A stretch of 61,879 nt of DNA, filler included, from Hausera hauseri (lineage: Eukaryota): NCBI GenBank assembly GCA_046269625.1. It is 12 parts of 12 records of this genome, joined end to end, with 100 filler letters (N's around TTAATTAATTAA, not from the genome) between each part and the next. Parts side by side here need not be neighbours in the genome. Positions count along the whole stretch, not along the records: positions 49,036 to 53,331 come from JBJURY010650663.1; 11 more parts are not named here. One strand, written 5' to 3'. The position numbers were made by a program, and so were the translations under genes. Positions 4,614 through 59,200 of this stretch are shown here, one piece after another; position 1 is the stretch's first letter, and every line of letters begins with the position of its first letter. The notes below the pieces were generated by a model, which was not told where the DNA came from, made no database searches, and worked only from the letters and a program-made list of their open reading frames with translations.

Positions 4614-4713
4614 NNNNNNNNNNNNNNNNNNNNNNNNNNNNNNNNNNNNNNNNNNNNTTAATTAATTAANNNNNNNNNNNNNNNNNNNNNNNNNNNNNNN
4701 NNNNNNNNNNNNN
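4614..4713. other. Artificial contig-joining linker (44 N + TTAATTAATTAA + 44 N). Identical linkers at 8789-8888, 13963-14062, 20601-20700, 25147-25246, 30684-30783, 35295-35394, 39590-39689, 48936-49035, 53332-53431, 57412-57511; 10-N gaps at 24851-24860, 38140-38149, 56962-56971
   Basis: The same 100-nt cassette occurs 11 times; TTAATTAATTAA puts stop codons in all six frames; sequence content changes abruptly at each linker. Confidence 0.99.
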
Positions 4714-15383: not shown

Positions 15384-15911
15384 ATGTCATCTACCAGGCT
15401 CAGGTACCCATATCCATTTCTGGATTCAGTTTTAGCTACCCAAAACTCTACACTGAAATCTACTGTGAAAGCGTCACATTTTTCAGCTAAACCAAGTGAA
15501 GGTATAGAAGACTATAAGATCAACTGCCCTGCACAAGCTGTTGTAAATTTACCTCAAATTAGCAATGATGGGAAAGAGCCAACTCCTTTGTCCAAAACTT
15601 CATCAAAAGCATCAGGATTCACAGCTGTGTCGGGAATGAGGAATATGTGCTCATTCTGCAAAAGAATCAGAGAACGTGAACAATTTTGTGCATCACATTC
15701 TCAGAAAGATCCAAATGGAATTGTGATTTGTCCAATCCTAAGAGCCTCTATTTTTCAACTGTGTGGGGCGACTGGAGACAATGCTCACACACGGTCTTAT
15801 TGCCCACTTTCAATTGAGAATTCACGCGCAAAGCATTCCGTGCACAAGAAATGTGGTAATGGTTATGTAGGATACAGCCATGGTCGTAGATTTCTAGGCA
15901 ACAGTTTTTAA
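15384..15911 (+). CDS. nanos: Nanos-family CCHC zinc-finger protein, possibly the last exon (candidate acceptor AG ending at 15329); one zinc ligand substituted
   Basis: CSFC-x12-H-x10-C-x7-[F]-x2-C-x7-H-x4-C with PILR and CGATGDNAHT signatures. Confidence 0.85.
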   Translation: MSSTRLRYPYPFLDSVLATQNSTLKSTVKASHFSAKPSEGIEDYKINCPAQAVVNLPQISNDGKEPTPLSKTSSKASGFTAVSGMRNMCSFCKRIREREQFCASHSQKDPNGIVICPILRASIFQLCGATGDNAHTRSYCPLSIENSRAKHSVHKKCGNGYVGYSHGRRFLGNSF

Positions 15912-28600: not shown

Positions 28601-29462
28601 AAAGATTCTGATGGTATTGTGAACACAAATCAACAGCAGTTCGGGCACATGAAAAACACGGATCTGCAGCGGCATCGATTGACATTAACTTAGAATACAT
28701 CTCATTGGTGACAAGTGACTGACATTGCGGTAAATTCGGATTGACGACCGATGATGGAATGGACACGGGGATTTTTCTTTCGCTGTAGACTTTAATGAGA
28801 TCTTTACAGGACTTTATCATTTGGCGGAACATGGGCAACAATTCCTGATAGTAAATGGGTTCAGACAACGACGTCAACAACTGTTGTCGTACAGAACATA
28901 AGATCCGTTCGTTTTCCATTGTCCAATCAGCATCGGCCGACCAGTACGCCAGAATAGTTGCGGCAACAAATCGCTGTGTAGCCAATCGTTCACGGAGATG
29001 CGTTTGGGAAATAATCGTACCAAGGATATGATCAGCCAACGGAGGAATGAATGACAATTTCCGACAAAGATGAGCCAATGCCTTACAGGCTGTGATACGG
29101 GCTCTGAGAACAGACTCATCTCGTAACACGGAATCACCTTCAGACATGTATGATTCTCTACCGCCAATGTATAGATCTTGTGGCATGTGATATTTATTGT
29201 CTGCCATATCATTGTCTGTGTCCGGCATAATGAGCAGGTCCTGAGAGAAACTCAATCGAGCAGGCTGCATGGCACAACACATCATAATATCAAGTCTCTC
29301 AATACAACTCTGTGTCAATAATTCACAACTAATTTTGTCAATAAACATTATGTTTGTTTTTCTCATGTCGTAGTAATTACAAGTCAAAATGTAATTATGA
29401 ACATTATATTTTTGACAGTTTATTGTTATCTCGTTCCATAATGTCATTACTGCATTAATCAA
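25646..29462 (-). CDS. BTAF1: BTAF1/Mot1 SNF2-family ATPase, 5' part incomplete; exons about 29328-26446, 26392-26159, 26117-25646
   Basis: LRYYQQQGVNWL, GILADDMGLGKTLQ, VLDEGH, LTGTPIQN, LPPKIIQD, HRVLIFCQ, GGLGLNL, HDWNPMRDLQAMDRAHRLGQ; GT-AG introns at 26393-26445 (53 nt) and 26118-26158 (41 nt) restore the frame. Confidence 0.93.
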
Positions 29463-30783
29463 CTTAACGAACTAAAATGAAACATGTGAATTAACCAAAT
29501 TAATCACAACAATTGCAGTGTATTGTAATTCAGCTTACTGAGATGAAAATTACAATCAACCAGTTTTTTGTTAGATAATTCTAGATATGCGGTAAAGTGC
29601 ATTACAGGTCACAGAGTGCGTGAGTATCAACATTCTGTTTACTTCATTATTTTGTATTCATTTGCAATGGCAAAGTTAATTAAAATGTTCATACAAATGG
29701 GAAATAATGCACTAGAGCTTTCTCTGCCATTTTTGTGTAGGAATTCCACATCAAGATTGGAATTTCTGTGACTGATTTCTTATCCAACATGTTTCTTGCT
29801 CCCTAATTATTCATCGGTGCACAAATTCATCGTGGCGAGTGTCAGGAACTTTATCAACTAACGATCTGAGTTGATTTAACACATGATTAAGTTCTCATTT
29901 CCTATACGAAAAATATCAGCTAAATTCATTTTCAGAGACAAACGATCTCATGACATCGGATGACCGGTGTGTCACCTGATGATGGTGAATAATACAATCA
30001 AAAGCTGCAATTTGTGTTTATTTATTTATGTTTGCAAAATTCTGTAAGCACAAGTTTATCATCGACAGTAACAAGAACTAATACAGTTTCTTAAAACTCT
30101 GTGATTTTTTTTTTTATTTGGACCTTTCTTTTCCAATCTTCCAACCGGCCCGTGACAGTTTTCAAAGAATCAAAGTTATGATCATTGTATGATCTCCTTA
30201 ACGTTACCCTCTCCTTAGCATTCCTGACAAAAGCTCACATTATGACCAAAAACCAGACCAGACCAGGAACAACTCACCCCAAGTAAACGGGAAGAGTTAC
30301 ACATGTGCACACACAAACTGATCTGTATGTTATACAAAACACAAAACGGATTTGTGAATGCTTTGATGTCGTTGACATTTGAAAGCTAAAGGAAATAAGA
30401 CAACGAATTTAACAACAAATGCTAACGTTGATGTATAATTTAACAAAAAATATGTAGATAACAGACGTTACTTTCTGGCTGAAATGGCTCAAAGAAGGGT
30501 GAAAAATGTAAATGAAAAGTTACCAATAGACTTGCATGTTTAAAAAGATCATTAAAATGGTACCTCGTTTCACGAACTTAATCCGTTTTGAAAAGTTGTT
30601 CGTGAGCCAAATTGTCCCTGGAACATATCAACTCTTCCCATAAGAAATAATGTAAATTCCACATAATGTCTTCTTGACCCCCCNNNNNNNNNNNNNNNNN
30701 NNNNNNNNNNNNNNNNNNNNNNNNNNNTTAATTAATTAANNNNNNNNNNNNNNNNNNNNNNNNNNNNNNNNNNNNNNNNNNNN

Positions 30784-33700
30784 ATGGCGTGGTCTTCCAT
30801 GATATGGTCTTTCATGGTGTTGACTTCCATAGTGTGGTCTTTCATGGTGTGGACTTCCATGGTGTGGCCTTTCATTGTGTAAACTTCCATACTACGGTCT
30901 TTCATGGTGGGGACATCCATGAAATGGTCCTTCATGGTGTGGACTTCCATCGTGTGGCCTTTTATGGTGTGGAATTCCATACTATGTTCTTTCATGGTGG
31001 GGCCTTCCATAATGTGGTCTTTCATGGCGTTGACTTCCATAATATGGCCTTTCATGGTGTGGACATCGATACTATGGTCTTTCATAGTGTGGACTTCCAT
31101 GGTGTGGGCTGTCATGGTGTAGACTTCCATACCATGTTCTTTCTTGGTGGGGACTTCCAGATGTGATATTTTTAGGTGGAACTTTCAATGATGTGGTCTA
31201 TCATGGTGTGGACTTTCATGGTGTGGCCTTTCATTGTGTGGACTTCCATACTATGTTCTTTCATGGTGGTGACATCAATGATGTGGTCTTTCACGGTGGG
31301 GACTCCCATGATGTGGTCTTTCATGGCGTGGTCTTCCATAATATGGTCTTTCATGGTGTTGACATCCATAGAATGGTCTTTCATGGTGTGGTCTTCCATA
31401 CTATGGTCTTTCATAGTGTGGACTTCCATGGTGTGGGCTGTCATGGTCTAGACTTCCATACCATGTTCTTTCTTGGTGGGGACTTCCAGATGTGATATTT
31501 TTAGGTGGAACTTTCAATGATGTGGTCTATCATGGTGGGGACTTTCATGGTGTGGCCTTTCATTGTGTGGACTTCCATACTATGGTCTTTCATGGTGGGG
31601 ACTTCCATGATGTGGTCTTTCATGGTGTGGTCTTCCATACACTTAACTTTTATGGTGAGGACTTCCATGATGTGGTCTTTTATGGTGTGGACTTCAATGG
31701 CGTGGCCTTTCATAATGTGGATTTCCATACTATGTTCTTTCATTGTGGGCATTTCCAGATGTGGTATTTCTAGGTGGGGCTTTCCATGATGTGGTTTTTC
31801 AAGGTGTGGACTTCCATGGTGTGGTCTTTCATGGTGTCGACTTCCATACTATGATCTTTCATAGTGTGGACTTCCATGGTGTGGGCTTTCATGGTGTGGA
31901 CTTCCATAATATGGTCTTTCATGGTGGGGACTTCCATGATGTGGTCCTTCATGGTGTGGACTTCAATGGCGTGGCCTTTAATGGTGTGAACTTCCATACT
32001 ATGTTCTTTCATGGTGGGGATTTCCAGATGTGGTATTTCTAGGTGGGGCTTTCATGATGTGGTCTTTCAATGTGTGGACTTCCATGGTGTGGCCTTTCAT
32101 GGTGTGGACTTCCATACTATGGTTTTTCATGGTGGGGACTTCCGTGATGTGGTATTTTATGGTGTTGTCTTCCATACTATTATCTTTCATGGTGGGGACT
32201 TCCATGATATGGTCTTTCATGGCGGGGTCTTCCATAATATGGTCTTTCATCGCATAGACATCCATAGAATGGTCTTTCATAGTGTAGACTTCCATACCAT
32301 GTTCCCTCTTGGTGGGGACTTCCACATGTGATATTTTAAGGTGGGGCTTTCCATGATGTGGTATATCATGGTTTGGACTTCCATGGTGTGGCCGTTCATT
32401 GTGTGGACTTCCGTAGTATGGTCTTTCATGGTGGGGACATACATGAATTGGTCTTTTATGGTGTGGACTTCCATGGTGTGGCCTTTCATGGTGTGGTCTT
32501 CCATACTATGGTCTTTCATAGTGTGGACTTCCATGGTGTAAGCTTTCATGGTGTAGACTTCCATACCATGTTCTCTCTTGGTGGGGACTTCCAGATGTGA
32601 TATTTTTAGGTGGGACTTTCCATGATGTGGTCTATTATGGTGTGGACTTTCATGGTGTGGCCTTTCATTGTGTGTACTTCCATACTATGTTCTTTCATGG
32701 TGGTGACATCAATGATGTGGTCTTTCACGGTGGGGATTCCCATGATGTGGTCTTTCATGCTGTGGACTTCCATATTATGGTCTTCATGGTGAATACTTCC
32801 ATGATGTGGTCTTTCAGGGTGGGTACTTCCATGATGTGGTCTTTCAGTATGTGGTCTTCCATACTATTATCTTTCATGGTGGGGACTTTTATGATGTCGT
32901 CTTTCATGGTGTGAACTTCAATGTAGTGGCCTTTAATGGTGTGGACTTCCATACTATGTTCTTTCATGGTGGGAATTTCCCGATGTGGCATTTCTAGGTG
33001 GGGCTTTCCATGATGTGGTCTTTCAAGGTGTGGACTTCCATGGTGTGGCCTTTTATGGTGTGGACTTCCATACTATGGTCTTTCATGGTGGGGACTTCCA
33101 TGATGTGGTCTTTCAAGGTGTGCACTTTTATGGTGTGGCCTTTCATGGTGTAGACTTCCAAACTATGGTCTATCATAGTGGGGATATTCATGAAATGGTC
33201 TTTTATGGTGTGGACTTTTATGGTGTGGACTTCTATACTGTGGTTTTCAATGGTGTGGACTTCCATGGTGTTGCCTTTCATGGTGTGGACTTCTATACTG
33301 TGGTCTTCCATGGTGGGGACTTCCATGGTGTGGCCTTTGATGGTGTGGACTTCTATATTGTGGTCCTTCATAATGTGGAATTCCATGGTGTGGCCTTTCA
33401 TTGTGTGGACTTCTATACTGGGATTTTTCATGGTGTGGACTTCCGTGCTGTGGCGTTTTATGGTGTGGACTTCTACACTGTGGCTTTTCATGGTGTGGAC
33501 TTTTATACTGTGGTCTTTCACGGTGGGGACTTCCATGATGTAGCCTTTCATTGTGTGTACTTCTATACTGTGTCTTTCATGGTGTGGACTGCCATGGTGT
33601 GGCCTTTCATGGCGTGGATTTCCATGGTGTGGCCTTTCATTGTATGGACTTCTATACTGTGGTCTTTCATGGTGTGGACTTCCATGGTGTGGCCTTTCAT

Positions 33701-35294
33701 GGTGTGGACTTCTATAATGTGACCTTTCATGGTGCAAACTTCCATACTATGGTCTTTCATGGTGGGAATTTCCATTATGTGGTCTTTCATAACGTGGTCT
33801 TCCATGATATGGTCTTTCAGGGTGGGTACTTCCATGATGTGGTCTTTCATGGTGTGGACGTCCATAATGTAGTCTTTCATGGTGCGGACTTCCATGATAT
33901 GGTTTTTCATTGTGTGGACTTCCATGGTGTGGCCTTTAATGGTGTGGACTTCCATACTATGTTTTTTAATGGTGGGGACTTCCAGATGTGGTTATTCTAA
34001 GTGGGGCTTTCCATGATGTGGTCTTTCATGGTGTGGACTTCCATGGTGTGGCCTTTCATGGTGTGGACTTCCATAATACGGTCTTTTATGGTTGGGACTT
34101 CCATGATGTGGTCTTACATGGCGTGGTATTCCATGATATGGTCTTTCATCGTGTTGACTTATATAGTGTGGTCTTTCATGGTGTGGACATCCATATTATG
34201 GTCTTTCATGGTGGGTCATCAATGATGTGGTCTTTCATGGTTTGGACTTCCATGGTGTGGCCTTTCATGGTGTGGACTTCCATCCTATGTTCTTTCATGG
34301 TGGGGACTTCCATGATGTGGTCTTTTGTGGCGTGGTCTTCCATGATATGGTCTTTCATGGTGTTGACTTCCATAGAGTGATCTTTTATGTAGTGGACTTC
34401 CATACTATGGTTTTTCATGTTGGGTCATCAATGATGCAATCTTTAATCGTGTGGACTTCCATGGTGTGGCCTTTCATTGTGCCGACTTCCATACTATGGT
34501 CTTTCATGGTGGAGACATCCATGAAATGGTCTTTCATGGTGTGGACTTCCATGGTGTGGCCTTTCATGGTGTGGACTTTAATACTATGTTCTTTCGTGGT
34601 GGGGCCTTCCATAATGTGGTCTTTCATGGCGTGGTCTTGCATGGTATGGTTTTTCATGGTGTTGACATCCATAAAACGGTCTTTCATGGTGTGGACTTCC
34701 ATGATGTGGCCTTTCATGGTGTGGACTTCCATACTGTGGTCTTTCATGGTGTGGTTTTCCATGGTGTGGCCTTTCATGGTGTGGACTTCTATACTGTGGC
34801 CTTTCATGGTGTGGATTTCAATACTATGGTCTTTCATAATGGGGACTTCCATCATGTTGTCTTTCATGGCGTGGTCTTCCATGATATGGTCTTTTATGGT
34901 GTTCATTTCCATAGTGTGGTCTTTCATGGTGTGGACTTCCATACTAAGGTCTTTCATGGTGGGTCATCAATGATGTGGTCTTTCATAGTGTGGACTTCCA
35001 TGGTGTGGCCTTTCATAGTGTCGACTTCCATACTATGTTCTTTCATGGTGGGGACATCCATGAATTAGTCTTTCATGGTGTGGACTTTCATGGTGTGGCC
35101 TTTAATGGTGTGGACTTCCATACTATGTTCTTTCATGGGGATGTCATCAACGATGTGGCCTTTTGTAGTGGGGACTACCATGATGTAGTCTTTCATGGTG
35201 TTGATTTCCATAGTGTGGTCTTTCATGGTGTGGACTTCCACACTATGGTCTTTCATGGTGGGTCATCAATGATGTGGTCTTTCATGGTGTGGAC
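30784..35294. repeat. Tandem minisatellite with a 30-bp unit (about GGTCTTTCATGGTGT GGACTTCCATGATGT) made of two related 15-mers; fills the whole contig
   Basis: About 150 directly visible degenerate copies; responsible for the many repetitive ORFs on both strands. Confidence 0.97.
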
Positions 35295-40719: not shown

Positions 40720-41530
40720 TTCGTTTCGGGACTTAGTGAAGGATTTCGTGGACGCTCCTGGACGCCAAGTCAGCGGTTTGATTTATTTCATAGACTGGAG
40801 AATTTCGGAATGAATACGTACGTTTACGTACCGAAAGATGACCCAAAACATCGACAGTTATGGCGCACTTTATATTCAAAAACAGAACTTACGCTCTTGA
40901 AATATCTTATTGCAACATCAAAGCTGTACAAAGTAACATTTGTTTATTTCATTTCACCAAGTTTGGACATTGCTTTTTCTGATTCGACAGATGTTCTCAC
41001 CCTAAAACAAAAAATGTCGCAGTATCTAAAATAGGCTGTGAATCATTTGCAATGCCTTTTGATGACTGATTCTAATTTAAAAAAACTAATTCAAAAGGGT
41101 ATATTTCGTCGGCTCAAGCTCAGATCTCAATAAAATATGACATGTGATTTTTTAAAACGTTTGAAATTGTCTTTCTTTTGCCCAACAGAATATCGTGGAA
41201 CTTGAGCTGTTTTGTCTGTTAAAGAGTCAGACTATCTAAAAACTGTCGGAGAATTTTTATCACCAGAAATTCGCGTTTTGTGGACTAGTCCAAAAGTTGT
41301 TTGGAAATTTATTCCGGTACTGTCAATCATTGAACTATCTGACGTTTTGCGACGATTTCCTGTTATATGGGACAATATCCACGCTAATGACTATGGTCAA
41401 CGTAGACTTTTCTTAGGTCCGCATTGTGGCCGTTTATCGAGCCTAATTCAATACGTCAGCAGAGTACTTACCAACCATAACTGCGAGTTTGAGGCTAATT
41501 ATATTTCAACCCACGCGTTGCCTCAATGCA
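40720..41530 (+). pseudogene. OGA: O-GlcNAcase GH84 catalytic domain, intronless and disrupted
   Basis: [88 protein letters not shown]; stops and frameshifts. Confidence 0.92.
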
Positions 41531-43220
41531 CACAATGTTATAGAAAAGTGTTAAAATGTGCTTTTGTCGATTGGCTAATGGTTTTGTGTGGAGATGTCGA
41601 TAAACATTTCGAAAATACAGACAAAGTGAACAAAAAATTAATTATCAACAATAATTCATTAAATATAAAATTCTCCACTGTGTCAAAAACATACACTGCC
41701 AAACCTTTGCAGGATATGACTGCTGAGATTTTGATCAAGTACTCTGCAATTGAACTGCCAAATATATTGCTACCATTCAATGCTCCCAATACCGAAGTCG
41801 ATGCGTCTAATAAAATTTTAACAAATTTGCAAAATGTGTACAAATGTGAAAGTACCGACGTATCAACATCTTCCAAAAATGCCATGGTACTCTTTCCAGT
41901 ATTTGATGTTAATCGGCCAGCTAACAGAAGCATACACGTCTTCGTAAAACAGGAGAACCTCTGACAATCAGACTTAGACAATTTATGATACAATCCATGC
42001 TTAAACACAAAATGTATGGGTTTGACACGCCCAAAAATTTACCAGGAACCTCAACAGCGAGATTGGCTTTGAAAGCATCACAGGTTAAAGGGGCACAGGG
42101 TCTCCATTAAGTGTCTTTATTGATGCTGCAACATATTTAATCACATCATTAACAATGGGGTTTTGCTGCAGTTGGTTGTTGGGCTCCCGTTTTTCATTTT
42201 TATCCCTTTCATTACTCTTGCCGGTATAATGCAAGGAAAACTTCCTTCTGTTCAGAGAATGATTGATAGTTCAAACGTTTTTTCAGTTGCCTTGCTTTTC
42301 ATAACGCTTAACAATATACGAGTTTTTCATCATTCGGATTACAAGCATATTTTTATGATAAATATACGGTTAGTCCAAAGTATACAAACAGATCAAAACA
42401 TTTTAGACTGTCATTCAATGGGCTAGTCTGCGGAATTGGTGCCTCAGCCACCTATTTTGGCCACCATGTAGTGTTTATTACTGGTGGAATTCTGTTAGAT
42501 AGGAACAAGATTGATTTGATTGGCCTCATAAGAATGTTTTCATGCTTCACACCGAACTCTGCAGCTTTCGCACGCGCATTTTGCTTTAGCGCCAAATACA
42601 AAAAAGCAAAAAACGTCACGATGCAACTGTTTGACGTCGTCGACCATATCAATCGGGCCGGTGTGATAATTTCTGCTAGTACATCGGAAATAGCGGAATC
42701 GTATAAAGGTAATACAGCATTTGTTGCAATAGATATTAAGTGCTATATGAATATTCTAATCAAATTACCTTATAAAAATTATCCTGATCACTGCCTGCAA
42801 TTTAAATCATTTGTAAACATGCCCGATAAAGCCCACCAGCTTGCTTTTAGAACCGCAGACTACGACGAACAGTCAGAGGGGAGGTCGGTCACCCTGCAAT
42901 TTGGGACCCTCCGTGCCGGGGCGGAGGTCTCGACCGTCAAACCTACGCCGGTCGGTCAGACGGCGCCTTTCGCGTCGGCCTCACACCATGCCCCAGGCAC
43001 ACTACTTTCCCATCTATTTTCCTTTTTATAAATAATACACACATGCACACTCAGTACATCACATTTACATATTGCAACCCTTCGTACCTTCATTTCTTTC
43101 TTACACAACTCTTCCGATTTCTATCTTACACATAACGGTTTTATAATACCCCTCACCGGAACCCTACCATCTTTCTCAAACCACACTTGCCTCTACATAC
43201 ATTCCCGTTTCCGTGGTGGC

Positions 43221-45751: not shown

Positions 45752-48700
45752 TTAATGAGAAGCCATCGCATGATCCTCAGTGCTTGGAGTGTCCGTTGTA
45801 AATCGGTGTATTGCAGCATTCTCTGAGGAAACTGCGAAACCAGCTCGTATCGCTGTTGAACCACGTGGAGGCAATATGTGGACTTGATCTGCGTGCCGCC
45901 GATGCACAGAACCGTCTTCTTGGTCAAGCAAACTGATGACTCTAGCACCCTCTTTGCCACAGATGACACCTTGACACAAGCGGTTCTCCTTGCCACGGAA
46001 AAACGTGACTTCAGTGGCATCCAGGTTCAGGCTGCGTAGATTTCTTTCATTAAAGAGTAAAGCAGAGGTTGCCTCGTAACTGCATGCGACGTGATGCGGT
46101 ATTAAAATAAGTAGTTGTCGATGCATTCTTCTAATGCCGTGAATGTAGGATAGTTTGAAGATTGTATAGATGATTTAAGTGACTTAATAAAATTCACAGC
46201 TAGACCATTCGACTGGGGATGACTTGGATGAGCAAAAACTTGGCAACATCCTATACCTTTTAACAAGTTTTGCATTTTACTGCCTGTAAAATGTGTACGA
46301 TTATCGCTGACAAGAACACGCGGAATGCCTTCACGCGAGAAGAATTTTCTCAAAGCCATTTTCGAAAATGAAGCAGACGCAGACACAGTCAAGAAAACTT
46401 CAGGATATTTGGAAAACCGTCAAAGATCCCCAGTGCGTAGTATTTCCCGAGGAAGGGACCACAGTAATCAACGTGAATCTTGTTCTTTGCTTCTCAAGTG
46501 CTTGGCCAAGGTTTCCATGAACAATGCGACTTCGGTTTGGCTTGGCAGCCGTTACACTATTTGATGTAAACATCGATGTCAGCATTAAACTCGGGCCACC
46601 AACACAGTAATCGAGCAAGCGATTTCATTTTATCTCTGCCAACATGGCCTTGATGTAGATGCACTAACATAGCACTGCGGCATACTGGTGGAATAATGAC
46701 TCGCTCATGAAACAGAAGAACCGCATCCACATCTACAGAAAGTTCATCCCGATACTTAAACAGAACCAGGAATCTTTTCTTGGCGCTTAGACTCCATCAG
46801 AATTTCAAGCAGTGGAGGACTAAACCGTAAAAATGACGCGTTTCCATAATCAAGCGATTTCGGTCAATGGACACCGGATTGACTAGAAAAACTAATTCAT
46901 CTCCATTCACTTCTGGTTTTTCCAAATTTAAAAACCGGGACAAGAAATCAGCATTTGGAATTTGTTTACCAAGTCGATGCACTGTGTCATAACGATAGCT
47001 TGAAAGTTCCATTGCCCAACGCTGTAACATCAATGAAGTGCACCTTGAGAGAGATGCATCAGGATGAAATATGTATTCTAACGCTTTATGATCCGTTACG
47101 ATCGTAAATGCGACACCAAAAAGAAATTTGTGCAAGCGCTTTAATGCCCAAAGAATGGCAAGAGCCTCTTTCTGTGTCTGTAAATAACATTTCTCAGTTT
47201 TGCTTAACAAGCGAAAAATAAAAACAACGGGACGTCCTTCCTGTTCTAGAACAGCGCCTACGCCTACTTCGGAAGCATCAACAACAATTTGTGATTTGGC
47301 AGTAAAACTAAAACTTTTCAGGACTACCTTGTCCTTCACAAGCTCTAGAAGCTTGCCATGCGCAACTTCTGCAGCTTTGTTCCACAAAAACTTATCGGCT
47401 TTAATCAACTTAAGCAGTGGACTAGCAATGGTGGAAAAATGAGGGATGAACTTTATATAGTATTGCATACAATAAACAAAAGAAAGTAACTCAGCAGCTG
47501 TTTGCGAAACTGTAGCAGACAAAAGAGAGCAAATTCGGTTTGGGTCAACCCTTATAACTTGACCATAAACACAATATCCTAAATATTGTAATGACTAGTC
47601 ACAAAATACAGACTTATCAGCATTAATACGAACATTATTTTCAAGTAGACGCTCGAGCAGAGCACTAAGATAGGAATCCTGAGCATCCTGTGTGGAAGCG
47701 AAGACAAGGATGTCATCTTGATAAGCCTTGACCCTTGTAACCCCTAAAGAAGTTTGTCAATCGCCTTCTGGGAAATTGCTGGTTCAACCTTCAAACCAAA
47801 TGGTAGATAATTATAACGGGAAAGACTCCGGATAGTATTGATGGTGGTGTACTCCTTAGATCTTTCTTCCAATGGAATTTGAAAATAAGCGTTTTGCAGG
47901 TCAACTTTAGAGAAGAAGGAACATCCACTCAAGCCTGATACCATTTCCTCAACATCTGGAGTAGTAGATGAAATGCATTTCAATGACCTGTTTACCGTTA
48001 CCGAGAAGTCTCCGCAAACTCGAACTTTGCCAGTCGACTTAATTGCTGTAGCAAAAGGAGTGGCCCACGAACTTGACTTTATGCATTCCAAAACGCCACA
48101 AGCAACTAGTCTATCCAATTCTTACTTAACAGCATCACGCACACTAAAAGCTAATGGTAGAACCTTGCAAAACTTTGCAGAATGGGCTTCAACAAGCAAC
48201 TCAACTAAGGAGATCTTCATGCTACCTTCAACTGTGGATCATTCAGCAATAAGTTTTCGCAGTCTCGTGGTCAGTATCGGCTTTTTAATTCCGTTTTTAA
48301 AATGCATTTAACTTGCAGAGAACGAAGACCGTTTAGGTCCAATATACACGGACTTTCATTTATGACCAAGAAATCTAACTCAACACGAGTGTCGCCCGAA
48401 ACGGAGACCTTGGTTGAAACTTCACCCTCAACTGACAGTCGATGACCTGTTATGCCTGAAGCAGAAGTAATGGTAGGTACTAGGTATTTACGACCAAGGC
48501 CAGCAACGCGGAGAGCAATGGCATTCAGAAAATTGACAGGGCTTCCTGTATCAATGATGAAATCAAAATATCAACCATTGGAGAACCCCAGCTTCTCAAC
48601 GATGCGATCAGATGAACAGCTATTTACACCGAGAACCTGGAAGTCAGTATCAATATTCGACTGAATAAACTTAACCTGAGTCTGACGACAGACTTTATTG

Positions 48701-48935
48701 AGGTGACCTGTCTTCTCACACTGAAAACACTTCGCCTCACGAAATTTGCAGTTTTTTCGAAAGTGATGTCCACCACACGAATGACAAGAGGTATTAGTGT
48801 TCTTCTTCACAGGATTCGCAACTGATTGTTATTTTGACTGAGTACTATTAGGTTTAGCGCGAACAAATTGTTTAGACAACGATGTCTTAGCTACAACCAA
48901 CACTTGCGTGTCAGGAATCGCATATTGAATATTGT
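45752..48935 (-). mobile_element. Decayed Mag-clade Ty3/Gypsy element (zinc knuckles, protease, RT, RNase H, integrase)
   Basis: [104 protein letters not shown]. Confidence 0.92.
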
Positions 48936-49035: not shown

Positions 49036-49581
49036 TTGCCATAAATTAGCCTTGCACACTGGACAAAAACTTTCAGTGTTATTGTCTAAGTCACAATCCG
49101 TGACCCTTGTTATTTCTTGGAAAAGGAATCCTTTGGGGGTTTTTATATATATATATATATATATATATCCGTGCAATTGTTTTTGGTCGGGATCAACTGA
49201 ACTTTTCCGTGGATCACCATTAACGGCTATTAGGGTCCACTCAATTACGGGTTGGGCATCTAGGTCTGGGACTCCCATTTTCTTGTACTGTTTCTTTATT
49301 TCTATTCTGGTCTGGTTGTCGACTGGCACGGTTATTCTCTTAGTTTCTGTTTTCGATCTGAACACTGGAGTTAGATATCTGCCTAACTTGGGGTCAATTC
49401 GAGCATAAGCATTTTCATGTAATTCTAATATTGGCACTGTACGAATGTAAAATACTGCCTCTTTGATTTTCCCACGACTTACATACTCTGCCATTATCAG
49501 GATGCTAGGTTGTTCTTCCGTGTCTTTGTGGTCTTCTGTGATTATTATTTCCTTATCTTGTCTCCTTTTTAAAACATTCAC
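49036..49581 (-). CDS. Unknown ORF ending in a CxxC motif (CPVC), cut by the contig end; contains a (TA)n tract at 49144-49168
   Basis: Open frame co-oriented with the upstream cargo ORFs; no recognisable family. Confidence 0.4.
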
Positions 49582-49762
49582 TTCCGTAAGTCTCTCTGGT
49601 ATCTTCTCCGGAGGATGTTTTCTAATTTGTTCAGTTTGGGATGATCCTTTTTCTTTCTTCTTTAGAAATCCGAATATTGATTTCTTTTTCTTTTATGGAG
49701 ATGGGTCTCTCAATTTTGGCTTTTGGTTGATGTTTCTTGATAGCTCTCTATTTTCTTTGTTT

Positions 49763-50880
49763 TTACAGGTACCTGAAATCCATATGTAAGGTTACTGGGT
49801 TTATGTTGGGTAACATCTTCTTGGTTTGAAACTGATACCGTAATTCGCATGTTATTGTCCCTTTTGGTTCGACGATTCGCATCGGCGAATACGGATGAAA
49901 TTGATTCCGGTGGTGGGAATTCAATTCCATCGGGTTTGTACTGCTTTGATTGTTATTTTTGGGGTTCAGGGCCCACCATTCATGATCCAATTTGATCGTG
50001 GCGTAAATATCGCGCAAGTATTGGGTCCTTTTAGTAGCAGGCAACTGTCGGTTGATTCTATAGTGGGTTCCGATCATGATTTCTATCATTGCTTTGAAGT
50101 GCGTTTCCATGGTCATGGGGACGGGTCGATTTACACTATCCATTTTCCCTTTAATGTTGGGGTCAGCCCAGAATTCTCGTATTCCGGCTATATTTTTGGG
50201 TTTTATTCCTAGTTTGTCTATTTGTTCTTGGGTTCGGAATTCCGCGATTATGCAACCGTACAAACAGTGGTTTAGTTCTATATCTACAGCCTTTATGTCC
50301 TTTCCATATATCATATCTTCTTTTCTTATGCCTGTTATTTCCGCAAACGTTTCTTTTACTCTTTTCCGAGGGGCAATCAGCCTAGAATACACTTCTATCC
50401 CATTCATATCTCTAACTGAAACTTCAATGGGGATAAAATTTCCGTTGTCTTCTTCTCCGTAGTTTGTGGCAATGATACGGACGTTCCGTCAGTCTTGTAC
50501 CAGTTTATATGACCCTAAATGTTTGTCTATTTGGTCTTCCGTTGGATACTGATGGTATATCAAGAAAGGCAAAGGTATAATCGGAATTTCCTCTCAGGTG
50601 ATTTCTACCATAAGTTTTACCGGTAGGGCTGTGATTCTTAATTCTATTTCTTTCACAATTAAGCTTCCTGCGCACAGCTTAAAAGTACTAAATTTATACT
50701 ACCGCCATTTATTCGAATCCCAGTTTTGTTCAGTCAATCTATAGTAAACTTTCCCTTCTGCTAGATGTATGTATACGTCATTATGCCGTTCTAACTCACA
50801 TTTTAGTAGGTTCCGTAGTTTATAAGATCGAGCATCTTCGTTGTTCCGCATGGCATATAATCGTATTATTCAATTCTCTT
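49763..50880 (-). pseudogene. ORF with a DEDDh 3'-5' exonuclease-like (REX4/ISG20) domain, catalytic residues not evident
   Basis: EVSVRDMNGIEVYSRLIAPRKRVKETFAEITGIRKEDMIYGKDIKAVDIELNHCLYGCII parallels REX4 RVSIVN..G..VYD.YVKP...V.DYRT.VSGIRPE.L..G......V..EV...L.GRIL. Confidence 0.68.
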
Positions 50881-51129
50881 CCATGATTCCTTTTAAACTG
50901 TTGGTATTTCATCTATTTTATTTTACTCAATTGATGGTTTGTTCTGTAATTCCAAGTGTATCGCATTCTCTTGCAAAAATCCATTGATGTCCATACAAGA
51001 ATTGCTGCTGGCCGCTATGATACTCACCAATCTGAAATAGAACAAATAAAGGTTAATCCTAAGACAGATCTTTGTTTCATTACAAAACAATTTTACTGTC
51101 TAATGACAGAATAACCTGATCTGTAGTTT

Positions 51130-52464
51130 TCAGGTTATTTTATCATACAAATCACTTTGGTAAACCACTCTTATTCCCGTATTACGATTTCTGCGCTGCT
51201 TTTTACAATTTTTGGCAACTATATAAAATGACGCAATTAGTATTAATAAGACGAACGCTGATACTCCGATGGTTGATACAATAGGTAGAGTTGTTAATTC
51301 AAATGGTTTCTGTGTTGTCAGGGGTGTAATAATTATGTTTTCTATGTTTTGACCTTTTTGTGAATCTGGATAAATTCTTTCTGGTAAAGTATGTAAAGTG
51401 ACTGTCTGATTTTGCTTTCAGGGTGCGTTAATTTGTATTATGTATTCTGTCTGAGATTTTAATGATTTACATTTGATTTGTGGCGTATTCCTTATGAGTA
51501 CTATCTTTTGTTTCCTATATAAGGTTCGACAGTTTATTTCTATATCGTAGTTTAATATTTCCTCAACAAAAATATTATCTTATTTCGCTGCAGTAGGTAT
51601 TTGATAAGAATACTTTCCGGTTGTTTTCCGGTCCTTTTCCTCGCCGTGACGATTTTAGTAGTGGTACCAACTGGTTGTCGTTGTTTTAATTGGAATCTTT
51701 CAATTTTGTCCTTGTAGACGATATCGTCTTAGGTATATACTTGGCTGGTTTGATCTGACTTTGTATAGGTCAAACTGTATTTCGTAATTGTACCCTTGGG
51801 GTATCTTACAGCACGGTTTTGGGTTCCATTGGCTAATAGCGCAATATTTTGCGGATGGATTTGTTTAGTCAGACGGTATAAATCGAACCGAGATCTGGTA
51901 GGATTTGGTTAGTTTTGTTCTAGTTTCAATCTGGATACATGCATGTTCCGAATCTTTGGAAACTTTGATTATATTCTTATTTAATAATTTAATTTGGGGT
52001 CAGTGCTTTGAACTATGTCGGATAATTTTGTGTCATCCGTTAGGGCTTTCCTGGGCATAACTATTTCAATTTGAAGCTGTATATCCGCTCGAATGACTTC
52101 ATAAGGGTAATAATATATGAGTATTGTATATTTATATGTTCGTCTGAAATCCAGTTCGCAACATTTTTTATAAATTCCATATTCAAACTCACAATCTTTT
52201 ATCTTTTCGATATTTTGATCAGTAAATTTTATACGGATTTTCATATATTCTCTGGTAACTTTGTCAGTTTTGAACCAAATACAGAGCTTTGTCCAATCCG
52301 CGTCATCTGCCTTCATGGTCCTTAAATTTTCCACACCTTTTCGTCCTTCCAAGTGTTGTTGTTTCACTATCGTCCCACCACTGCGCTGTAGTCTTAGGAA
52401 CATAGGAGGCGATTAGTGATAATGCCAAAATTATCAGTACGTAAGAAATTGGTCTAGTGATCAT
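51130..52464 (-). pseudogene. Type I membrane protein: signal peptide, three FN3-like domains, transmembrane helix, short tail
   Basis: Signal ISYVLIILALSLIAS; repeats ending CCELDFRRTYKYTI, CCKIPQGYNYEIQF, CKSLKSQTEYIIQINA; helix LPIVSTIGVSAFVLLILIASFYIVA (51288-51214) followed by KNCKKQRR. Confidence 0.7.
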
Positions 52465-52479
52465 AGAGGATGTTTTCGT

Positions 52480-53331
52480 TTTCGAGCTCGGTCGCAAATT
52501 GTAACGTTTTTCTGGATATATTTCTTTTTTAACAACTCTCTGTATATATATACTACCTCTTCTTTACCATTTTTATTAATGTACACAGTAGTTGGTGTGG
52601 TTCGAATAACTTCGTAAGGCCCTCGTCCAGTACGAGTAAGTTTTAATGAGGTGCCTTTCCTTGCGAATGGGTAGTGTATATAGACCCAGTTTCCTTTTTC
52701 TAAATCCTGAGGTTCTGCCTTCTTACCATATTGTTTCTTAAATTGTTCTTGATACTCGAGAGTAATCATTTTCGCTATATCCCAACATTTTTGTAATCTT
52801 ATTTGCAAGACATCTGCGAAGTTTGGTTCTAAATCTTCTGGATTTGCGTGATACGGAGTCATCCCTAAGTCCGTAGGTAAAATCGCTTTGCGTCCGTACA
52901 TCATAAAAAATGGTGCAAATCTTGCGGCGGGGTGTGGGGTAGTATTAATAGCAAATTATGTTCCTTCTAAAAATTCATCCCAGTCCTTTTGATCCTTCGC
53001 TACTACGGTTGATAAGACACGTACAACTGTGACAATCAATCGTTCGACCATCCCACTGCACTAATGATGATAAGCAGTAGTGGTTAATAGTTCAATTTCG
53101 AAGATTTTAGAAATTTAGTCAAATAGTTCGCTTGTAAAGTTTCTTCCTCCATCGGTCAATATTTGTTCAGGCGGTCCGTATCTGCAGATGATTTTCCTTA
53201 CTACTGCGTCTGCTAATGTTTCCGCTTTTTGATCGAATAATGCGATTAATTCCACAAAGTGTGCTAAACGGTCCACGCATATCAGAATATATTTGTTATT
53301 TTTATGAGTTGTAGGTAAATGTCCCACTATA
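52480..53331 (-). pseudogene. Ty3/Gypsy integrase core and GPY/F region
   Basis: KYILICVD, YGPPEQILTDGGRNFTS, TTAYH..SGMVER, PFFMMYGRK, RGPYEV and terminal KRYNLRP. Confidence 0.93.
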
Positions 53332-53431
53332 NNNNNNNNNNNNNNNNNNNNNNNNNNNNNNNNNNNNNNNNNNNNTTAATTAATTAANNNNNNNNNNNNN
53401 NNNNNNNNNNNNNNNNNNNNNNNNNNNNNNN

Positions 53432-56225
53432 CGATCGGATAGATGTTTCCGTTTCAATAAAAACTGATAGAACTTCTCAAATTGAATCTGGCCACGTTTG
53501 TAATAATTGTCGAATGATTCCGGTTTTTCTCGCCCATTATACTCGTCTACGTCCACTAATTCGTCCAACATGTTTTCCAAATCAAAACAACGGGCCAAAT
53601 CACGCAAACCCTCCGACACTGTTCCCTGGTAGATTTCAAACAAATTCTTCCGCAGATCGTCACAAAGATTCCGATAGTCAATTAGACAGGCTTTCAGATT
53701 TCGAATTTTCCAAATCGCTGCGTTCGGACCCAGCGCCGACATGTCGTCCACTTCATTCAACGAATCCGATATCCGTTTTTCTTCAATTATTCCGTCCCAG
53801 TTCGGATGCAGAAACGGAAAAAGGTAATTGCTCGGTGAAATATTGCGTTCGATACACACCCGAAGATTGTCAGACATTTCGTGAAGAATCTTGAACAGTC
53901 TGGGAAACCAAGTCGCCACTTTCCACGGTGGGAAACTGCCGATTTGCAATTTGGAAATAAATTCAACGATCGGATTGAGAATGTCGATAGAAACACAAAG
54001 GTCAATAATGAAATCTCGACCTTGGAGAAAAAACCCGATCGGTGAACTGATATCGTACGACGACGTTTCAATGTCGAATTCGGCGAATATTGATGGATAA
54101 TAGTTGAAATATTTTTTCAAGTCTCGCAGAAATTTGTGTGTAAATTTGATGCGACAAACTTCATTTTTCGACAGTAACTCCTGATCATCGTCGTAACCGT
54201 CGATATTATCAATTTTGAATATTGCTTGGAATTTTTGACAGCGTTTCGTGAAGATATCGAAGAATTTCATTGAACCCGTGACTTTTTTCACACAATCATC
54301 AATCCATTCCGCTATATCATATATGATGAAGAAATAGCAGTCGTCCATAATGCCGATTTGCCGTTTGATTTGCGTGTAGAACGTATAATCGTACGAACTA
54401 TCGGCGTAAATTGTCGTAATTGGAAACAAATGTTCCGTTTTCAGATTCAAACGTTCTTTGATGATACTCATTACGACACTGGCACGATCTTTACCTCGGC
54501 CAGTTTCTTCTACCGACTCGGAATCGTCACACGAATACGTCATCAGACAATCAATTGGAATGGCTTTCCGGATTCCGTTCGTGTTGACGATCAGCATTAT
54601 CATTTGATAATCGATATCATTCTTCACTTTGGAATTGAGTGCCAGACTGAAGTGTTGTGGCATGCCTGTAGCGGACAAATTACTAAGAATGTGCGATGTT
54701 AATTTCTGCTGTCCGTACGTTCGTAGTATTTGAATAAATGACTGGAGATTGTTGACATTCAAACGACTTGGCCCAACATCCACTCCCAATGAATCGAATA
54801 TTGACAACATATTCGTAAACGTTTCATTCGAGTGTTTCAATTTTATTGCACTAAGAGCGACAGCAAGAATATTTTTGGCCGATGAAGTCTGAATTCGATC
54901 GGTTTTGTGGATTTCAACGTGACGATTAAGTGTTTTTCGTAATGCAATCCAAGCCGAACTTTTTCCCGTTTCAATATCCATTGCTTTCTGGTCGATGAAT
55001 TCTAATCCGGTAGCGAGAGTCGTTTTGTACTTGGATGATTTGACATTTTGTTTGCACAGAACACAGAAAATTTTAAAGCCACGTTCAATTTTCACTTTTA
55101 TAAATAATTCATGCTCGGAAATATACGTGTTGATATTATCCGATTTCATCGATTTCTTTTCAACTGGTTCTTTCTTCGGAGGTTTCGACGAATTTCCCCT
55201 ATTGGGAATATCATGAAACTCTTTGTGTCTATTCAAACATAATTTCAAGCTGTACCAAATTTGACTACCGCCAGTTTCAACTTCTTCTGCCTTGTCACCG
55301 GAAAACTTCAGACCATTCCAAAATGCTGCTTTACTTCGATTAACAATGTTTTCCCGTTTACACAGTAAACAAATGATCTTAAACCCATCTTCAGTAACTA
55401 CTTTACGAAAGATATTGTTTTCCTCCAGATAAATGTTAATGTTATCATACTTCTTTCGACGGACTTTGGTTTTTTTAAGAGACGGACTATACCGCGGTCG
55501 GGAATATTCATCAAATTCCGATTCTTCAGATTTTTGAATTTTGTTCGACGAAATACTGAAATTAGTATCGGAAAAGTCATCGAAGCTGAGATTGTCAGAT
55601 TTCTTGGACTTCGTTACTTTTTTTGTGGAACAAGAAAAACTGGAATCGTAAAAATCATTTAAACGAAGGCTTTCGGCTTTCTTTGACTTCTTCGCAGCTT
55701 TCGGCTTTTTTAATGAACTAAATACTTCTTCGTCATCATTTTCATTTTCTTTCTCCTTTTTGAATTCGTCCTTTTCATCGCAAAAAAATTCTTTATTGTT
55801 ATTAAATAACCTATTCGTACTGCAATAGCTAATCTCTGTCATAATGTCATCATAGTTATTGATACGCCGACGTTTACGTTGATTGGATTCGACAACTGTT
55901 GGTGTCTCTCTAACAGATGGTAAACTTTCTTTAACTTTGGATATTTCTGTTGAAAATGATTTATCGGCATCTTCAATTGAATTTGAAGCCGTACAACTTT
56001 CATATCTTCCTTCTATTAGCTTTTGAATGCTTCTGCACGAATTTGTCGTGCTACCAACTATTTTCAAAGGATTGGGAATCTGTTTAACAGAAATCTTTGG
56101 AACCGATGTTGTACTCGTCGGTACATTTACACTATTAATCAATGAGCTCTCTTCAAAATAATTGTCTTTAAGATTTTGCACATCAACTATTGTAGCATGA
56201 TCGATATCAATATCAGGCTTCCAAT
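53432..56225 (-). CDS. Intact large exon of a hAT-transposase-derived protein with two repeated CxxC...HxxxH zinc modules; 3' end truncated
   Basis: More than 900 uninterrupted codons; in-frame splice acceptor TTTTTAAG ending at 56226; hAT-like segments GVDVG, QHFSLAL, IYADSSY, DILNPIVEF. Confidence 0.7.
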
Positions 56226-59200
56226 CTTAAAAATATAATTCATATTCAAATATATTATAGCAAAATGGTAAAAAAAAATATCATCTAAATCAGCAATAAA
56301 TAAACTTAACAAAGTTTTATAAAATAAAGTATTATTAAGAATTTCTGTAGAAATATAAGACCTTGAAAAGATCCGAACCTCTAGAAACTCTAATCTATAG
56401 TCAACTTAAGAAGTGGGGTGCCTAAGGGGGTTTAGTGGGTTAAAACTCCCCACGAAATTTGGCTTAAAATTTTTTTTCATAGCATGTATTGCCGTATTAA
56501 ATTTATTTATAGTGACGTTTCACATTTTAAAATTACAAATTTTCATATTTGGAATCGTGTATGCAAGAAATGTCGTAAAACAGAAGCTACATTTGGCAAA
56601 AGATTTATACAAGAACTTTCAATATGCTATAAATATTACATAAACCCCCTTTGCTAAATCCTTAAGAGGCTACATAAAATAATCCGATTGACGTTCAAAC
56701 CCTGTGCTTGATTCTCATCTGCAAAGGCTTATGAAAATGACAACTTAATATAAAGGATGGCAAAAAACGACCATTGCATTGAACAATATCATTACTCAAA
56801 TACTATCACTACCTGACATCCGTTACGAAAGCCTTTCCACTATTTTTTCATAAATTAAGAGATATTTTATTGGAAAAATTTGTGCAGCATTTCCTAAACT
56901 TAAACGACGTAATTATGTTGTAGTATGATTTTCGCAAATCTTAAAACTGGAATACCATTAANNNNNNNNNNACTAAATAAGCGCCTGTCTTGATACTCGT
57001 TCAATCCCCCTCAGTTTGTATAGACAAATTGAATTTTGATTAAAATCTCCGTACATATTGAAAATGAAATAACTAAATGTGGCCAAGATCCTTTACTGAA
57101 AAGCAATTATCATATTTTGAATAAAAAAAAGCGTTTAACTTCAATAATCCATTGAAAACCTTACAACGGTCCATGACTGTGAAATTCGTTCTCAATCATA
57201 ATTGCTAAAAATATCAATTTAACCATATCCCATCGAGATAAAGACGTTAGTAAAAGTTAACATCTTTCAGTAATAAACTAAACAAACAAAATAATTTTTC
57301 TATCTGAAATTACAAACATCAGAACAATTGTTTAAAATAAATATTTACCGTTGACAAAAAACGTAAGAAATAATATCTAATATCGTAAACAAAGAATACT
57401 CACCGTAAACGNNNNNNNNNNNNNNNNNNNNNNNNNNNNNNNNNNNNNNNNNNNNTTAATTAATTAANNNNNNNNNNNNNNNNNNNNNNNNNNNNNNNNN
57501 NNNNNNNNNNNGACTCATCCCATCATTTTCAGTGAAAATTAACAAATTTTATCAAATCAATTTACTAAAAAAACATTGTCAAATCCGAGATATTCGATTA
57601 TGAAAAATCAATTATTTTAATAACAAAATTAGAAATGTTAGAATTTACAATTTCTAATGTTGGATTTGCATTAATTCAAATATTACAGTTGTTACGAATT
57701 GCTGAGTCATTCCAATTCATCATGATGAGTCATTGATATTTATCTGATTAGATAATCATCGATGATTGGTGGCTTTTGTAAAAATGAGACTTGCTTATCT
57801 GGTTAGTTAGAATGTTACATTAGAAGGAGCTGCCGACGATAATTTGATGGAGTATCGCAGGAATGCCTGTTCATTTTATAAAATGCAGTAAGAAGGAATC
57901 ATAGATAACAGAAATGAGTCATGTACTCAATGATATCTTTGCGTTCAGAGAAAATTTGATTGTGAGATTCAAAAATAATGCAATTGAAATATTCTGACGG
58001 TAGACAGGAAGTGGATTTTTAACGAAATACCGAAATTATTTCCGATTTATCAACTACAAAACAAAGCTATGCATAAATACTAAACCTTTCATTTTGTCAT
58101 GTGCATGAAGCATGTCAATAACACACACACACAGTCAATTTAATTTACTAATTCAAATTTTCATCAACTAACTATATAGTTGAATAAAATTTATTTTACC
58201 ATCAAATATTTATTGCTAAACATCTATCGATGATTTATTTTATCGAATATGAGAAGGCATCGAATCGACACGTCAAATTGAATTTGTTTCATCATTTTAT
58301 GGATGATGTTGGACTGCAAATTTTACTGAAATACCAAAATTGTTATGCATACATATTTGGATGGGGTATAATGAAGAAGTACCACGACGTAAATATTGAT
58401 AATTTTAAACAATATATCATAAACAAATAATGACTTTATGCAAAACCTAATAACTATGTTCAACTAATGTTTATTCAGCATGTATTATCAAATAAAATAA
58501 TTGCATGTGTTATACATTGGGATGGCCCTTATTCAACTCCAACTATATAACAATAATTACAATTGAGATTTGAGTACCTTAATGCAGGTAAGGTCTGCCG
58601 TTATCGAATAGACAGAATGTACCTTATAACAATTAGTTTAATCAGTAATGCTGGTACTCGTTTGCGGTCCTGTGCAAAAATGTTTAACAAAATTCTCCTC
58701 CTAACTACATAATTTTACAGTAAAATTTAATGACCTTAGTGTAGTCAAATCACCCTTAAGGGGCAATGAAAAACTGTATAAGAATTTTAGAATAAACAAT
58801 GTATTTTTACAACAAAAATAATTACACAGCTTCTGTATACAGCTCCGGTATCGAATTCAAATCAATTGGCTCAGGAATCAATCCTCAGGAAATGTCTTCG
58901 ACGAATCTGCGCTCTTCGGCGTGTTCTAAATTTTCTTCGTCTTCTCGACGATTCGATATTTCGATTTGAATTTTCAACTTCTCTAAGGAAGTTCAAATAA
59001 GCTCCAATAGCTTCAATTAAAATCAGCTATCACAACTTTCCAAACTCAAATATTTCTCAAATAACTTCAACTAAAAACAAGTTCAATTAACACTCACTAA
59101 CACTCAACAATACAACAATTTATACTTAAAATTTCACGCTTATATACTAATGTAACTGCGTACGTGACTGATTTAATTTCAGATTCTTGCAATTATAAAC

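Follow-up and report, generated by a model that had tools for sequence, protein, structure and literature searches.

The cargo described at the env position of gypsy elements comprises captured viral fusogens of the F and gB types (PMC13524379), small FAST-like proteins (PMC11952523) and enzymes (PMC5408684), as far as the accessible text of these sources goes. The env genes of errantiviruses encode either F-type fusogens, with a conserved furin site and a fusion peptide, or HSV gB-type fusogens (Chary and Hayashi, PMC13524379). The Juno and Vesta elements of bdelloid rotifers carry a non-env ORF3 cargo that includes GDSL, DEDDy nucleases and small transmembrane ORFs (PMC5408684). In MDG1-group elements, the sORF2 or FAST-like proteins are 63–107 aa long, with an ectodomain of ~30 residues and a myristoylation motif, and they set a precedent for a membrane protein that serves transfer without env (PMC11952523). 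The word 'fibronectin' occurs 0 times in the main texts of PMC13524379, PMC5408684 and PMC11952523, and the literature searched, judged by titles and abstract starts, did not describe any LTR element with an FN3 ORF (Repbase, Dfam, subscription journals and supplements lay outside this search). The errantivirus survey used env baits, as its accessible text describes, and would therefore have missed an FN3 membrane gene (PMC13524379).

Here we analyse a locus in a window of 61,879 nucleotides from Hausera hauseri, the window being the whole stretch of DNA examined, which consists of short contigs chained by linkers of 44 N, TTAATTAATTAA and 44 N. The locus occupies the minus strand of a 4.3 kb contig (49036–53331) with N-linkers on both sides, in which a Ty3/gypsy integrase is followed by a membrane protein gene and a further broken ORF region (Table 1). 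Because the linkers bound this contig, linkage is demonstrated only within 49036–53331. We read the locus as a decayed Ty3/gypsy-type copy in which the integrase is followed by a single-pass membrane protein with three putative FN3 domains that likely acts in attachment or adhesion, and we give this reading a probability of roughly 50%; the attachment role, taken by itself, is evenly poised. The contig is partial, ending inside the integrase at 53331, and no LTR, gag or RT was found on it, nor did it have a second match elsewhere in the window when checked for LTRs; of its eight purine runs none is diagnostic of a PPT. Two candidates for further element parts, a 948-aa ORF (53380–56226) and a gypsy RT/RNase H at ~46000–48900, were ruled out, as an N-linker intervenes in each case. 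Other contigs of the window encode animal genes (a nanos zinc finger, a BTAF1-like SNF2 protein and a piece of an O-GlcNAcase), and further retroelement parts are present on other contigs as well.

Table 1 Features of the element-bearing contig, in window coordinates.
Feature	Position	Strand	Basis or remark
Element-bearing contig	49036..53331	.	entirely repetitive; 30/30 depth bins covered, run X1, at least 80% likeness
Ty3/gypsy integrase core and C-terminal region, GPY motif	52464..53330	-	rve and Ty3 Gag-Pol matches; cut by contig end
(TA)5 run, site of integrase frame slip	52543..52552	.	length varies among run X1 copies
Integrase tail of the alternative frame, closing with KRYNLRP and in phase with membrane-gene Met	52465..52563	-	translation
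ATGA overlap, TGA of slipped integrase frame and membrane-gene ATG	52461..52464	-	sequence
Predicted signal peptide, hydrophobic core, T-x-A before Q	52384..52464	-	conserved in P0007
Domain 1, predicted FN3-type beta-sandwich, 4 conserved Cys	52050..52316	-	homologues, model
Domain 2, the best-modelled of the predicted FN3-type beta-sandwiches, 4 conserved Cys, interrupted by two in-frame stops	51690..51975	-	
Thr-rich linker between domains 2 and 3, frame switch inside	51612..51689	-	
Domain 3, predicted FN3-type, 2 conserved Cys, interrupted by a frame switch and an in-frame stop	51380..51611	-	
Transmembrane helix, 25 aa	51214..51288	-	Kyte-Doolittle maximum 2.62 over 19 aa
Cytoplasmic tail, K-x-C, basic patch, C-terminal Y-x-[KR]-I-T, stop codon	51130..51213	-	
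Further broken, repetitive ORF(s)	49036..51100	-	longest open 50488-49766 (241 aa) and 49692-49036 (219 aa)

As in errantiviruses, the gypsy integrase is followed by an ORF with a signal peptide, a Cys-rich ectodomain and a C-terminal transmembrane helix, but unlike the F and gB env proteins the ectodomain is predicted to form three FN3-type domains (PMC13524379), and the conserved furin site and fusion peptide of the F type are lacking. Juno and Vesta likewise have family-specific extra ORFs after pol, and a second extra ORF follows here too; in contrast to our locus, FN3 or immunoglobulin cargo is unmentioned in the accessible text on those elements, whose transmembrane ORFs are 210–230 aa long (PMC5408684). 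Like sORF2, which has been linked to cell-to-cell transfer, the gene product is a membrane protein other than env whose juxtamembrane patch is basic; it departs from sORF2 in its length of ~470 aa, its signal peptide and its three folded domains (PMC11952523); the intact homologue P0007, at 479 aa and with a signal peptide, also falls outside the sORF2/FAST-like class. The giant gypsy elements Burro and GYPSM1 of planarians are similar in carrying numerous accessory domains and in their polyprotein fusions, but their env lies between gag and pol, and fibronectin or FN3 is unmentioned in the text available (PMC6431247). Fibronectin-named modules and a Thr-rich region also occur in a flatworm virus, the planarian nidovirus PSCNV, but those modules are of type II (~40 aa), with an unrelated fold, and belong to an RNA virus polyprotein (PMC6211748). 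Among cellular proteins, FNDC5, the cytokine receptors and Dscam/contactin share the signal peptide, FN3 domains and membrane anchor; unlike these type I proteins, to which it has no detectable sequence homology, the gene is intron-free, multi-copy and tied to an integrase.

The integrase frame upstream of the membrane gene matches Pfam rve (E 2e-9), and its best PDB match is Ty3 Gag-Pol (E 1.6e-13, residues 4–256), with GPY aligned to GPF, as in a DDE integrase of the gypsy type with a GPY/F motif. Three in-frame stops interrupt it. Distant relatives of the integrase were identified in 11 of 412 metagenome matches (27–44% identity); the membrane gene is absent from all 11 (E<0.1), which are too distant to be informative. 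Nine of the 11, as judged by eye from the translations, apparently form a single family with a chromodomain-like end, in which the env-like ORF is a different and longer one. No integrase relative was found in viral contigs (0/33) or in phages.

The integrase and the membrane gene lie on the same strand and adjoin directly, with no spacer between them. The preliminary description had noted an integrase tail, KRYNLRP, in frame with a downstream signal peptide, a frame slip at a (TA)n near 52541–52552, and an ATGA stop/start overlap at 52461–52464, and all three hold: the frame from 52563 (...KRYNLRPSSKTKTSS-MITRPISYVLIILALSLIAS) is stop-free across the integrase tail into the membrane gene, the repeat is (TA)5, starting at 52543, and the overlap is present where it had been placed. 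A single Rfam match, at chance level, falls on the (TA)n. The description of the integrase as 'running into' the membrane protein stands for the in-frame run-through of this copy but not for a fusion, since the ATGA overlap offers an alternative reading and P0007 is a stand-alone gene call; the same slipped copy can be read in either way, as run-through or as overlap. The family may still make one Pol-membrane polyprotein from which signal peptidase would release the membrane protein via the internal signal peptide, a possibility that carries appreciable weight, although we lean against it. Between KRYNLRP and the Met there is no stop codon in the window's copy, the copies in run X1 vary in length at the (TA)n slip site, and the accessible account of Burro describes giant polyproteins with in-frame env (PMC6431247). 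On the other hand, P0007 begins 9 residues before the aligned Met, and these residues are unlike the window's integrase tail; a length-free search returned no integrase-fused relative, and a search for longer proteins with domain 1 gave 0 of 141 candidates, which is weak evidence. Such a polyprotein would be compatible with an attachment role as well as with a host-acting one.

The membrane gene in the window is decayed and encodes a predicted type I membrane protein, in which a signal peptide precedes three Cys-containing domains and a helix of 25 residues leads to a short tail. Its outline agrees with what had been reported earlier, as the two related Cys-containing domains, the third domain, the hydrophobic helix (51288–51214), the basic stretch and the Tyr-containing tail were all recovered. 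The signal peptide cleavage site was placed by the -3/-1 rule, which we assume to apply here. The score between domains 1 and 2 is reached by 0/3000 shuffles, and from their sequences the two are a duplication; domains 2 and 3 are weakly alike (62/3000 shuffles reach the score), and 2772/3000 shuffles reach that of domains 1 and 3. Comparison with the homologues P0007 and P0006 revealed that the reading frame switches four times (near 52340, 51995, 51680 and 51570) and is broken by three stops in frame (51867, 51702 and 51420), so the window's copy of the membrane gene is dead. The start of domain 3 and the Thr-rich linker sit in another frame, an assignment reached by 0/2000 shuffles for each homologue. 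The tail of the window's copy ends in YDKIT, and a terminal Y-x-[KR]-I-T is found in 3/3 sequences (window, P0007 and P0006); its Tyr motif may be a YxxPhi sorting signal.

Homologues of the membrane gene are few. A word-based search with its second half, stops being read as X, yielded 279 candidates, one of which (P0006) matched, and a full HMMER scan of 1.84 billion representatives gave three matches, P0007 (479 aa, E 4e-44), P0006 and P0008. The last of these (771 aa) was rejected as a tandem-repeat artefact with 12 short stretches and is left out of all counts. Both true relatives, P0007 and P0006, are single-member ENA contig ORFs, on contigs of 4.9 kb and 16.2 kb respectively, and no named host protein was found among the 1.84 billion representatives; pattern matches added no relative (0/36, 0/592, 0/2 and 0/87). 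P0007 is intact, with one unbroken, intron-free ORF that matches all pieces of the window's gene in order, at 50% identity over 52 aa for the signal peptide, 35% over 124 aa for domain 1 and 36% over 279 aa from domain 2 to the tail. Since this intact protein matches the signal peptide, both domain stretches and the tail, the layout of the window's gene is not due to chance. P0006 represents a third lineage, 43–46% identical to the window and P0007, and aligns with the window from domain 3 to the tail (43% identity over 150 aa). The predicted type I membrane layout, proposed at the outset, is kept in both of these diverged homologues. All 10 ectodomain Cys and the juxtamembrane Cys are conserved at ~35–45% overall identity, and at the sequence level the conservation of the Cys and of the tail motif points to long selection on the membrane protein.

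The structure of P0007 was predicted with AlphaFold2 from a 3-sequence alignment. The model is weak overall (mean pLDDT 51, pTM 0.28) and contains a helix after the signal peptide (residues 32–74), three all-beta domains and a helix (430–465) that corresponds to the transmembrane segment. Domain 2 has seven or more strands at a pLDDT of ~70–82, and domains 1 and 3 range from 40 to 75; a seven-stranded beta-sandwich matching FN3 structures is firm in the model for domain 2 and weaker for domains 1 and 3. Folding followed by a Foldseek search had been suggested as a check on the FN3 assignment, and it came out in favour: 208 PDB matches at E<=0.001 are led by tandem fibronectin III fragments (E 5e-9), gp130, Dscam, contactin and Tie2, with low whole-chain TM-scores because domain packing was not modelled. 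With VIA-align, three of 48,161 chains reach Z>=8, counted for the whole model, and FN3 domains dominate the list, with fibronectin 4–7 at the top (Z 8.8). Domain 3 aligns with an FN3 chain (Z 8.2, rmsd 2.8 over 75 residues) and domain 2 with a cytokine-receptor chain (Z 7.9, rmsd 2.9 over 88 residues), domain 1 being covered within two-domain alignments. Non-FN3 sandwiches score too (a beta-galactosidase domain at Z 8.4 and a designed Ig at Z 8.0), and Z values of 7–9 are near the level reached by models without a clear match. The nearest named clusters in the Atlas carry fn3 (0.85–0.87), which serves as a lead only.

Sequence profiles capture this fold poorly: Pfam fn3 (PF00041) scores 13 bits on P0006, under the curated cut-off of 25, with no match on P0007 or the window pieces, and PDB sequence searches with the membrane protein found nothing. 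When folded alone from a single sequence, domain 1 of the window reached a pLDDT of 44 with no structural matches at E<=0.001, and its Atlas match was weak and ZP-N-like (0.80). The tyrosine-corner spacing L/I-x5-Y is found in all three domains, in 7/7 domain copies examined. The full signature LxPxTxYxVxVxA, on which the FN3 assignment was originally based, is only partly borne out, as domain 3 of the window reads LKSQTEY and has no Pro, whereas P0007 has the exact L-x-P-x-T-x-Y corner in its domain 3 (LSPQTEY). FN3 domains have a conserved Trp in strand B; at this position Trp occurs in domain 1 only (CIWF), with Gln or Phe in domains 2 and 3. Taken from the model, an FN3-type fold of the ectodomain is very probable, and the domains are best described as a divergent, disulfide-bearing FN3-type sandwich. 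In domain 2 this prediction is firm, and in the other two domains it is probable.

The best structural matches include cytokine-receptor chains (gp130, the IL-20 and TSLP receptor complexes, IFNAR and IFNGR), and the product could be element-borne but host-acting, either as a decoy or dominant-negative receptor or as a block against re-entry by related elements. The Cys pairs in domains 1 and 2 resemble those of cytokine receptors, and a cytokine-receptor-like FN3 ectodomain with a tail too short to signal alone would suit a decoy. Giant flatworm elements are also described, in the accessible text, as carrying host-modulating BIR, BCL-2 and ankyrin domains (PMC6431247). We nevertheless consider a host-acting product unlikely, as the cytokine-receptor matches score no higher than plain fibronectin or adhesion molecules, P0007 has no WSXWS motif, and the conserved terminal Tyr motif suggests active sorting.

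The repeat status of the locus was assessed in run X1, which holds 0.32 of the sampled words and is possibly the window's own source, hence not independent. In this run, 5987 contigs map to the 4.3 kb with a likeness of at least 80%, most of them below 95% (372, 1007, 2361 and 2247 by four identity classes), and coverage extends over 30/30 bins, as expected for an interspersed multi-copy repeat. At every one of 7 listed sites within the membrane gene, 6–36 X1 contigs have another letter, and the length differences among the copies coincide with the frame-switch places of the window's gene. Because many differing X1 contigs lie over it, the membrane gene and the region after it are repeats. This cover rules out a single-copy host gene hit by an integrase insertion, the outcome that the preliminary description had set against a multi-copy element, and bears out the latter. 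Among 8 listed of 6032 X1 pieces, none bridges the junction between the integrase and the gene, and one X1 joint from the integrase to domain 3 has a short side of only 21 letters; the co-occurrence of the two in other copies we infer from this contig. No RNA run is among the listed holders of the sampled words. We hold with good confidence that the membrane gene is element-borne cargo.

The gene might instead be a captured or neighbouring piece of a host FN3 surface-protein multigene family resembling EG95/45W, amplified as a passenger with the element, which the linkage to the integrase, known from this one contig, would allow. Tapeworm EG95 is a multigene FN3 surface antigen with a signal peptide, but it is GPI-anchored and has introns, as far as the accessible text shows (PMC2671473), whereas P0007 has a transmembrane helix and tail in an unbroken ORF; the GPI anchor and intron-bearing host gene of EG95/45W are replaced here by a helix, a tail of 25–27 aa and a single ORF. 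That only two true relatives were found among the representatives scanned, neither a named host protein, speaks against a passenger, and so does the retention of every Cys across three lineages at 35–46% identity, which is not expected of one. A passenger origin is accordingly quite unlikely.

Class II fusogens contain an Ig-like domain, and the env position, type I topology, Tyr sorting tail and long helix after the signal peptide (residues 32–74 of the P0007 model) could fit a true envelope, namely a new fusogen built on beta-sandwich domains, but this is highly improbable because a conserved furin site and an internal hydrophobic fusion peptide are both absent and three small predicted FN3-like domains would account for the ectodomain. 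The protein is also far longer than the sORF2/FAST proteins of 63–107 aa, as described in the accessible text (PMC11952523). P0007 lacks an R-x-[RK]-R site, and its only hydrophobic stretches are the signal peptide and the transmembrane helix; the RTKR of the window, which coincides with a frame switch, is not conserved. No viral fusogen is among the listed Foldseek, viral-library and VIA-align matches, the viral structure library yielding mostly FN3/Ig proteins of phages and large viruses. The earlier view of an adhesion or receptor-like protein rather than a fusogen is upheld as regards the predicted FN3 fold, the type I layout and the lack of fusogen hallmarks in the sequence, but not as regards function itself.

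The preferred reading of an attachment or adhesion protein can be put as a sequence of steps. The signal peptide would take the membrane protein into the secretory pathway, whether translation starts at the protein's own Met or signal peptidase cuts it off the end of Pol, and its disulfide-stabilised FN3 domains, carried on a Thr-rich stalk, would bind a surface partner. The conserved basic tail with its Cys and Tyr may sort the protein to the membrane where capsids gather; attachment would then bring the capsid-loaded membrane against the target cell, and the element could thereby pass between cells. Membrane merger, if any, would come from an env elsewhere in the element or from host uptake. 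Adhesion and receptor proteins have this build of FN3 repeats, Thr-rich stalk and sorting-type tail, but a shared fold by itself does not demonstrate function. A wider proposal is that a gypsy lineage turned a cellular FN3 adhesion or receptor fold into an attachment glycoprotein, possibly cut from the Pol end, that docks capsid-bearing membranes on target cells (stem or germ cells) beside a separate fusogen or without a viral one; we regard it as tentative and rather doubtful. A paramyxovirus attachment protein works beside F in a comparable manner. The position after the integrase need not mean that env has been replaced, because the contig lacks the element's upstream part and the env of Burro, in the text available, lies between gag and pol (PMC6431247).

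The ORF region downstream of the membrane gene has no match in Pfam, NCBIfam, PHROGs or PDB, and no relatives were found among 40 candidates (0/40), with tblastn matches at chance level only. By eye, 50488–49950 resembles a DEDDh exonuclease without its acidic residues. A DEDDh profile built from 5 E. coli enzymes was equalled on this ORF by 195 of 819 scored shuffles (of 1000), and the DEDDh identity is not supported by this profile test.

In conclusion, we find a real feature, an accessory-ORF-bearing gypsy element with a putative FN3-type membrane cargo, whose function we infer. A receptor-like membrane protein with three FN3 domains, under selection in the element, would add a cargo class to those known, and one probably derived from the host. 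If the reading as an attachment glycoprotein is true, it would be a third kind of retrotransposon surface protein. The intact natural copy P0007 makes localisation, binding and adhesion directly testable, and the locus may offer a handle on the way in which retrotransposons of animals other than insects select target cells and get to them.

Besides the FN3 gene, the decayed membrane-protein gene that follows a Ty3/gypsy integrase, the window carries further mobile-element pieces, host-like frames, repeats and a fragment of an envelope-type gene.

Features identified in the window outside the FN3 gene
Feature	Positions	Strand	Details
Bcl-2-like ORF	4666-5325	-	weak likeness; E 0.019, under cut-off
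Chuvirus/Monjiviricetes-type fusion glycoprotein	10387-11208	+	fragment; PF24664, E 6.5e-21
Nanos zinc-finger ORF	15303-15911	+	ligands partly altered
BTAF1/Mot1-like SNF2 gene	26442-29471	-	one open frame, 1009 codons
Long tandem array	30720-35070		15/30-nt units coding for pentapeptide repeats; PF13599, E 1.7e-22
O-GlcNAcase-like fragment	41206-41964	+	
Separate decayed gypsy-type element	45900-48935	-	protease, RT, RNase H and integrase pieces; contig neighbouring that of the FN3 gene
Second cargo region	49036-51100	-	broken, repetitive; 3' of the FN3 gene
Additional open stretch	49692-49036	-	219 aa; within the second cargo region
948-aa open frame	53380-56226	-	on its own contig

The 948-aa frame, which returned no match in a Pfam search, bears two related Cys/His-containing repeats (CLLCKR...HKEFH and CVLCKQ...HVEIH) and by eye looks like a DNA-transposon protein. 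Downstream of the FN3 gene, the segment at 50488-49950 (minus strand) resembles by eye a catalytically dead DEDDh exonuclease; this identity found no support in searches of Pfam, NCBIfam, PHROGs and PDB or with a profile of five E. coli DEDDh enzymes.

The SNF2 frame is either an intron-poor host gene or a retrocopy, and the Nanos and O-GlcNAcase-like pieces may be retrocopied scraps. BCL-2-like domains are carried by Burro elements, the giant gypsy elements of planarians (PMC6431247). P0008, a database protein of 771 aa, consists of approximately 12 near-identical repeats of 64 aa each and is probably a translated tandem DNA repeat.

Judged by their translations, nine metagenome contigs with distant integrase relatives (L001-L008 and L010) appear to belong to a single gypsy family. 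In it the integrase ends in a chromodomain-like segment and the env-like ORF is long and rich in Cys, similar to the chromodomain errantiviruses in PMC13524379. The fusion glycoprotein fragment indicates that gB-like envelope genes are therefore present too in the Hausera hauseri genome.
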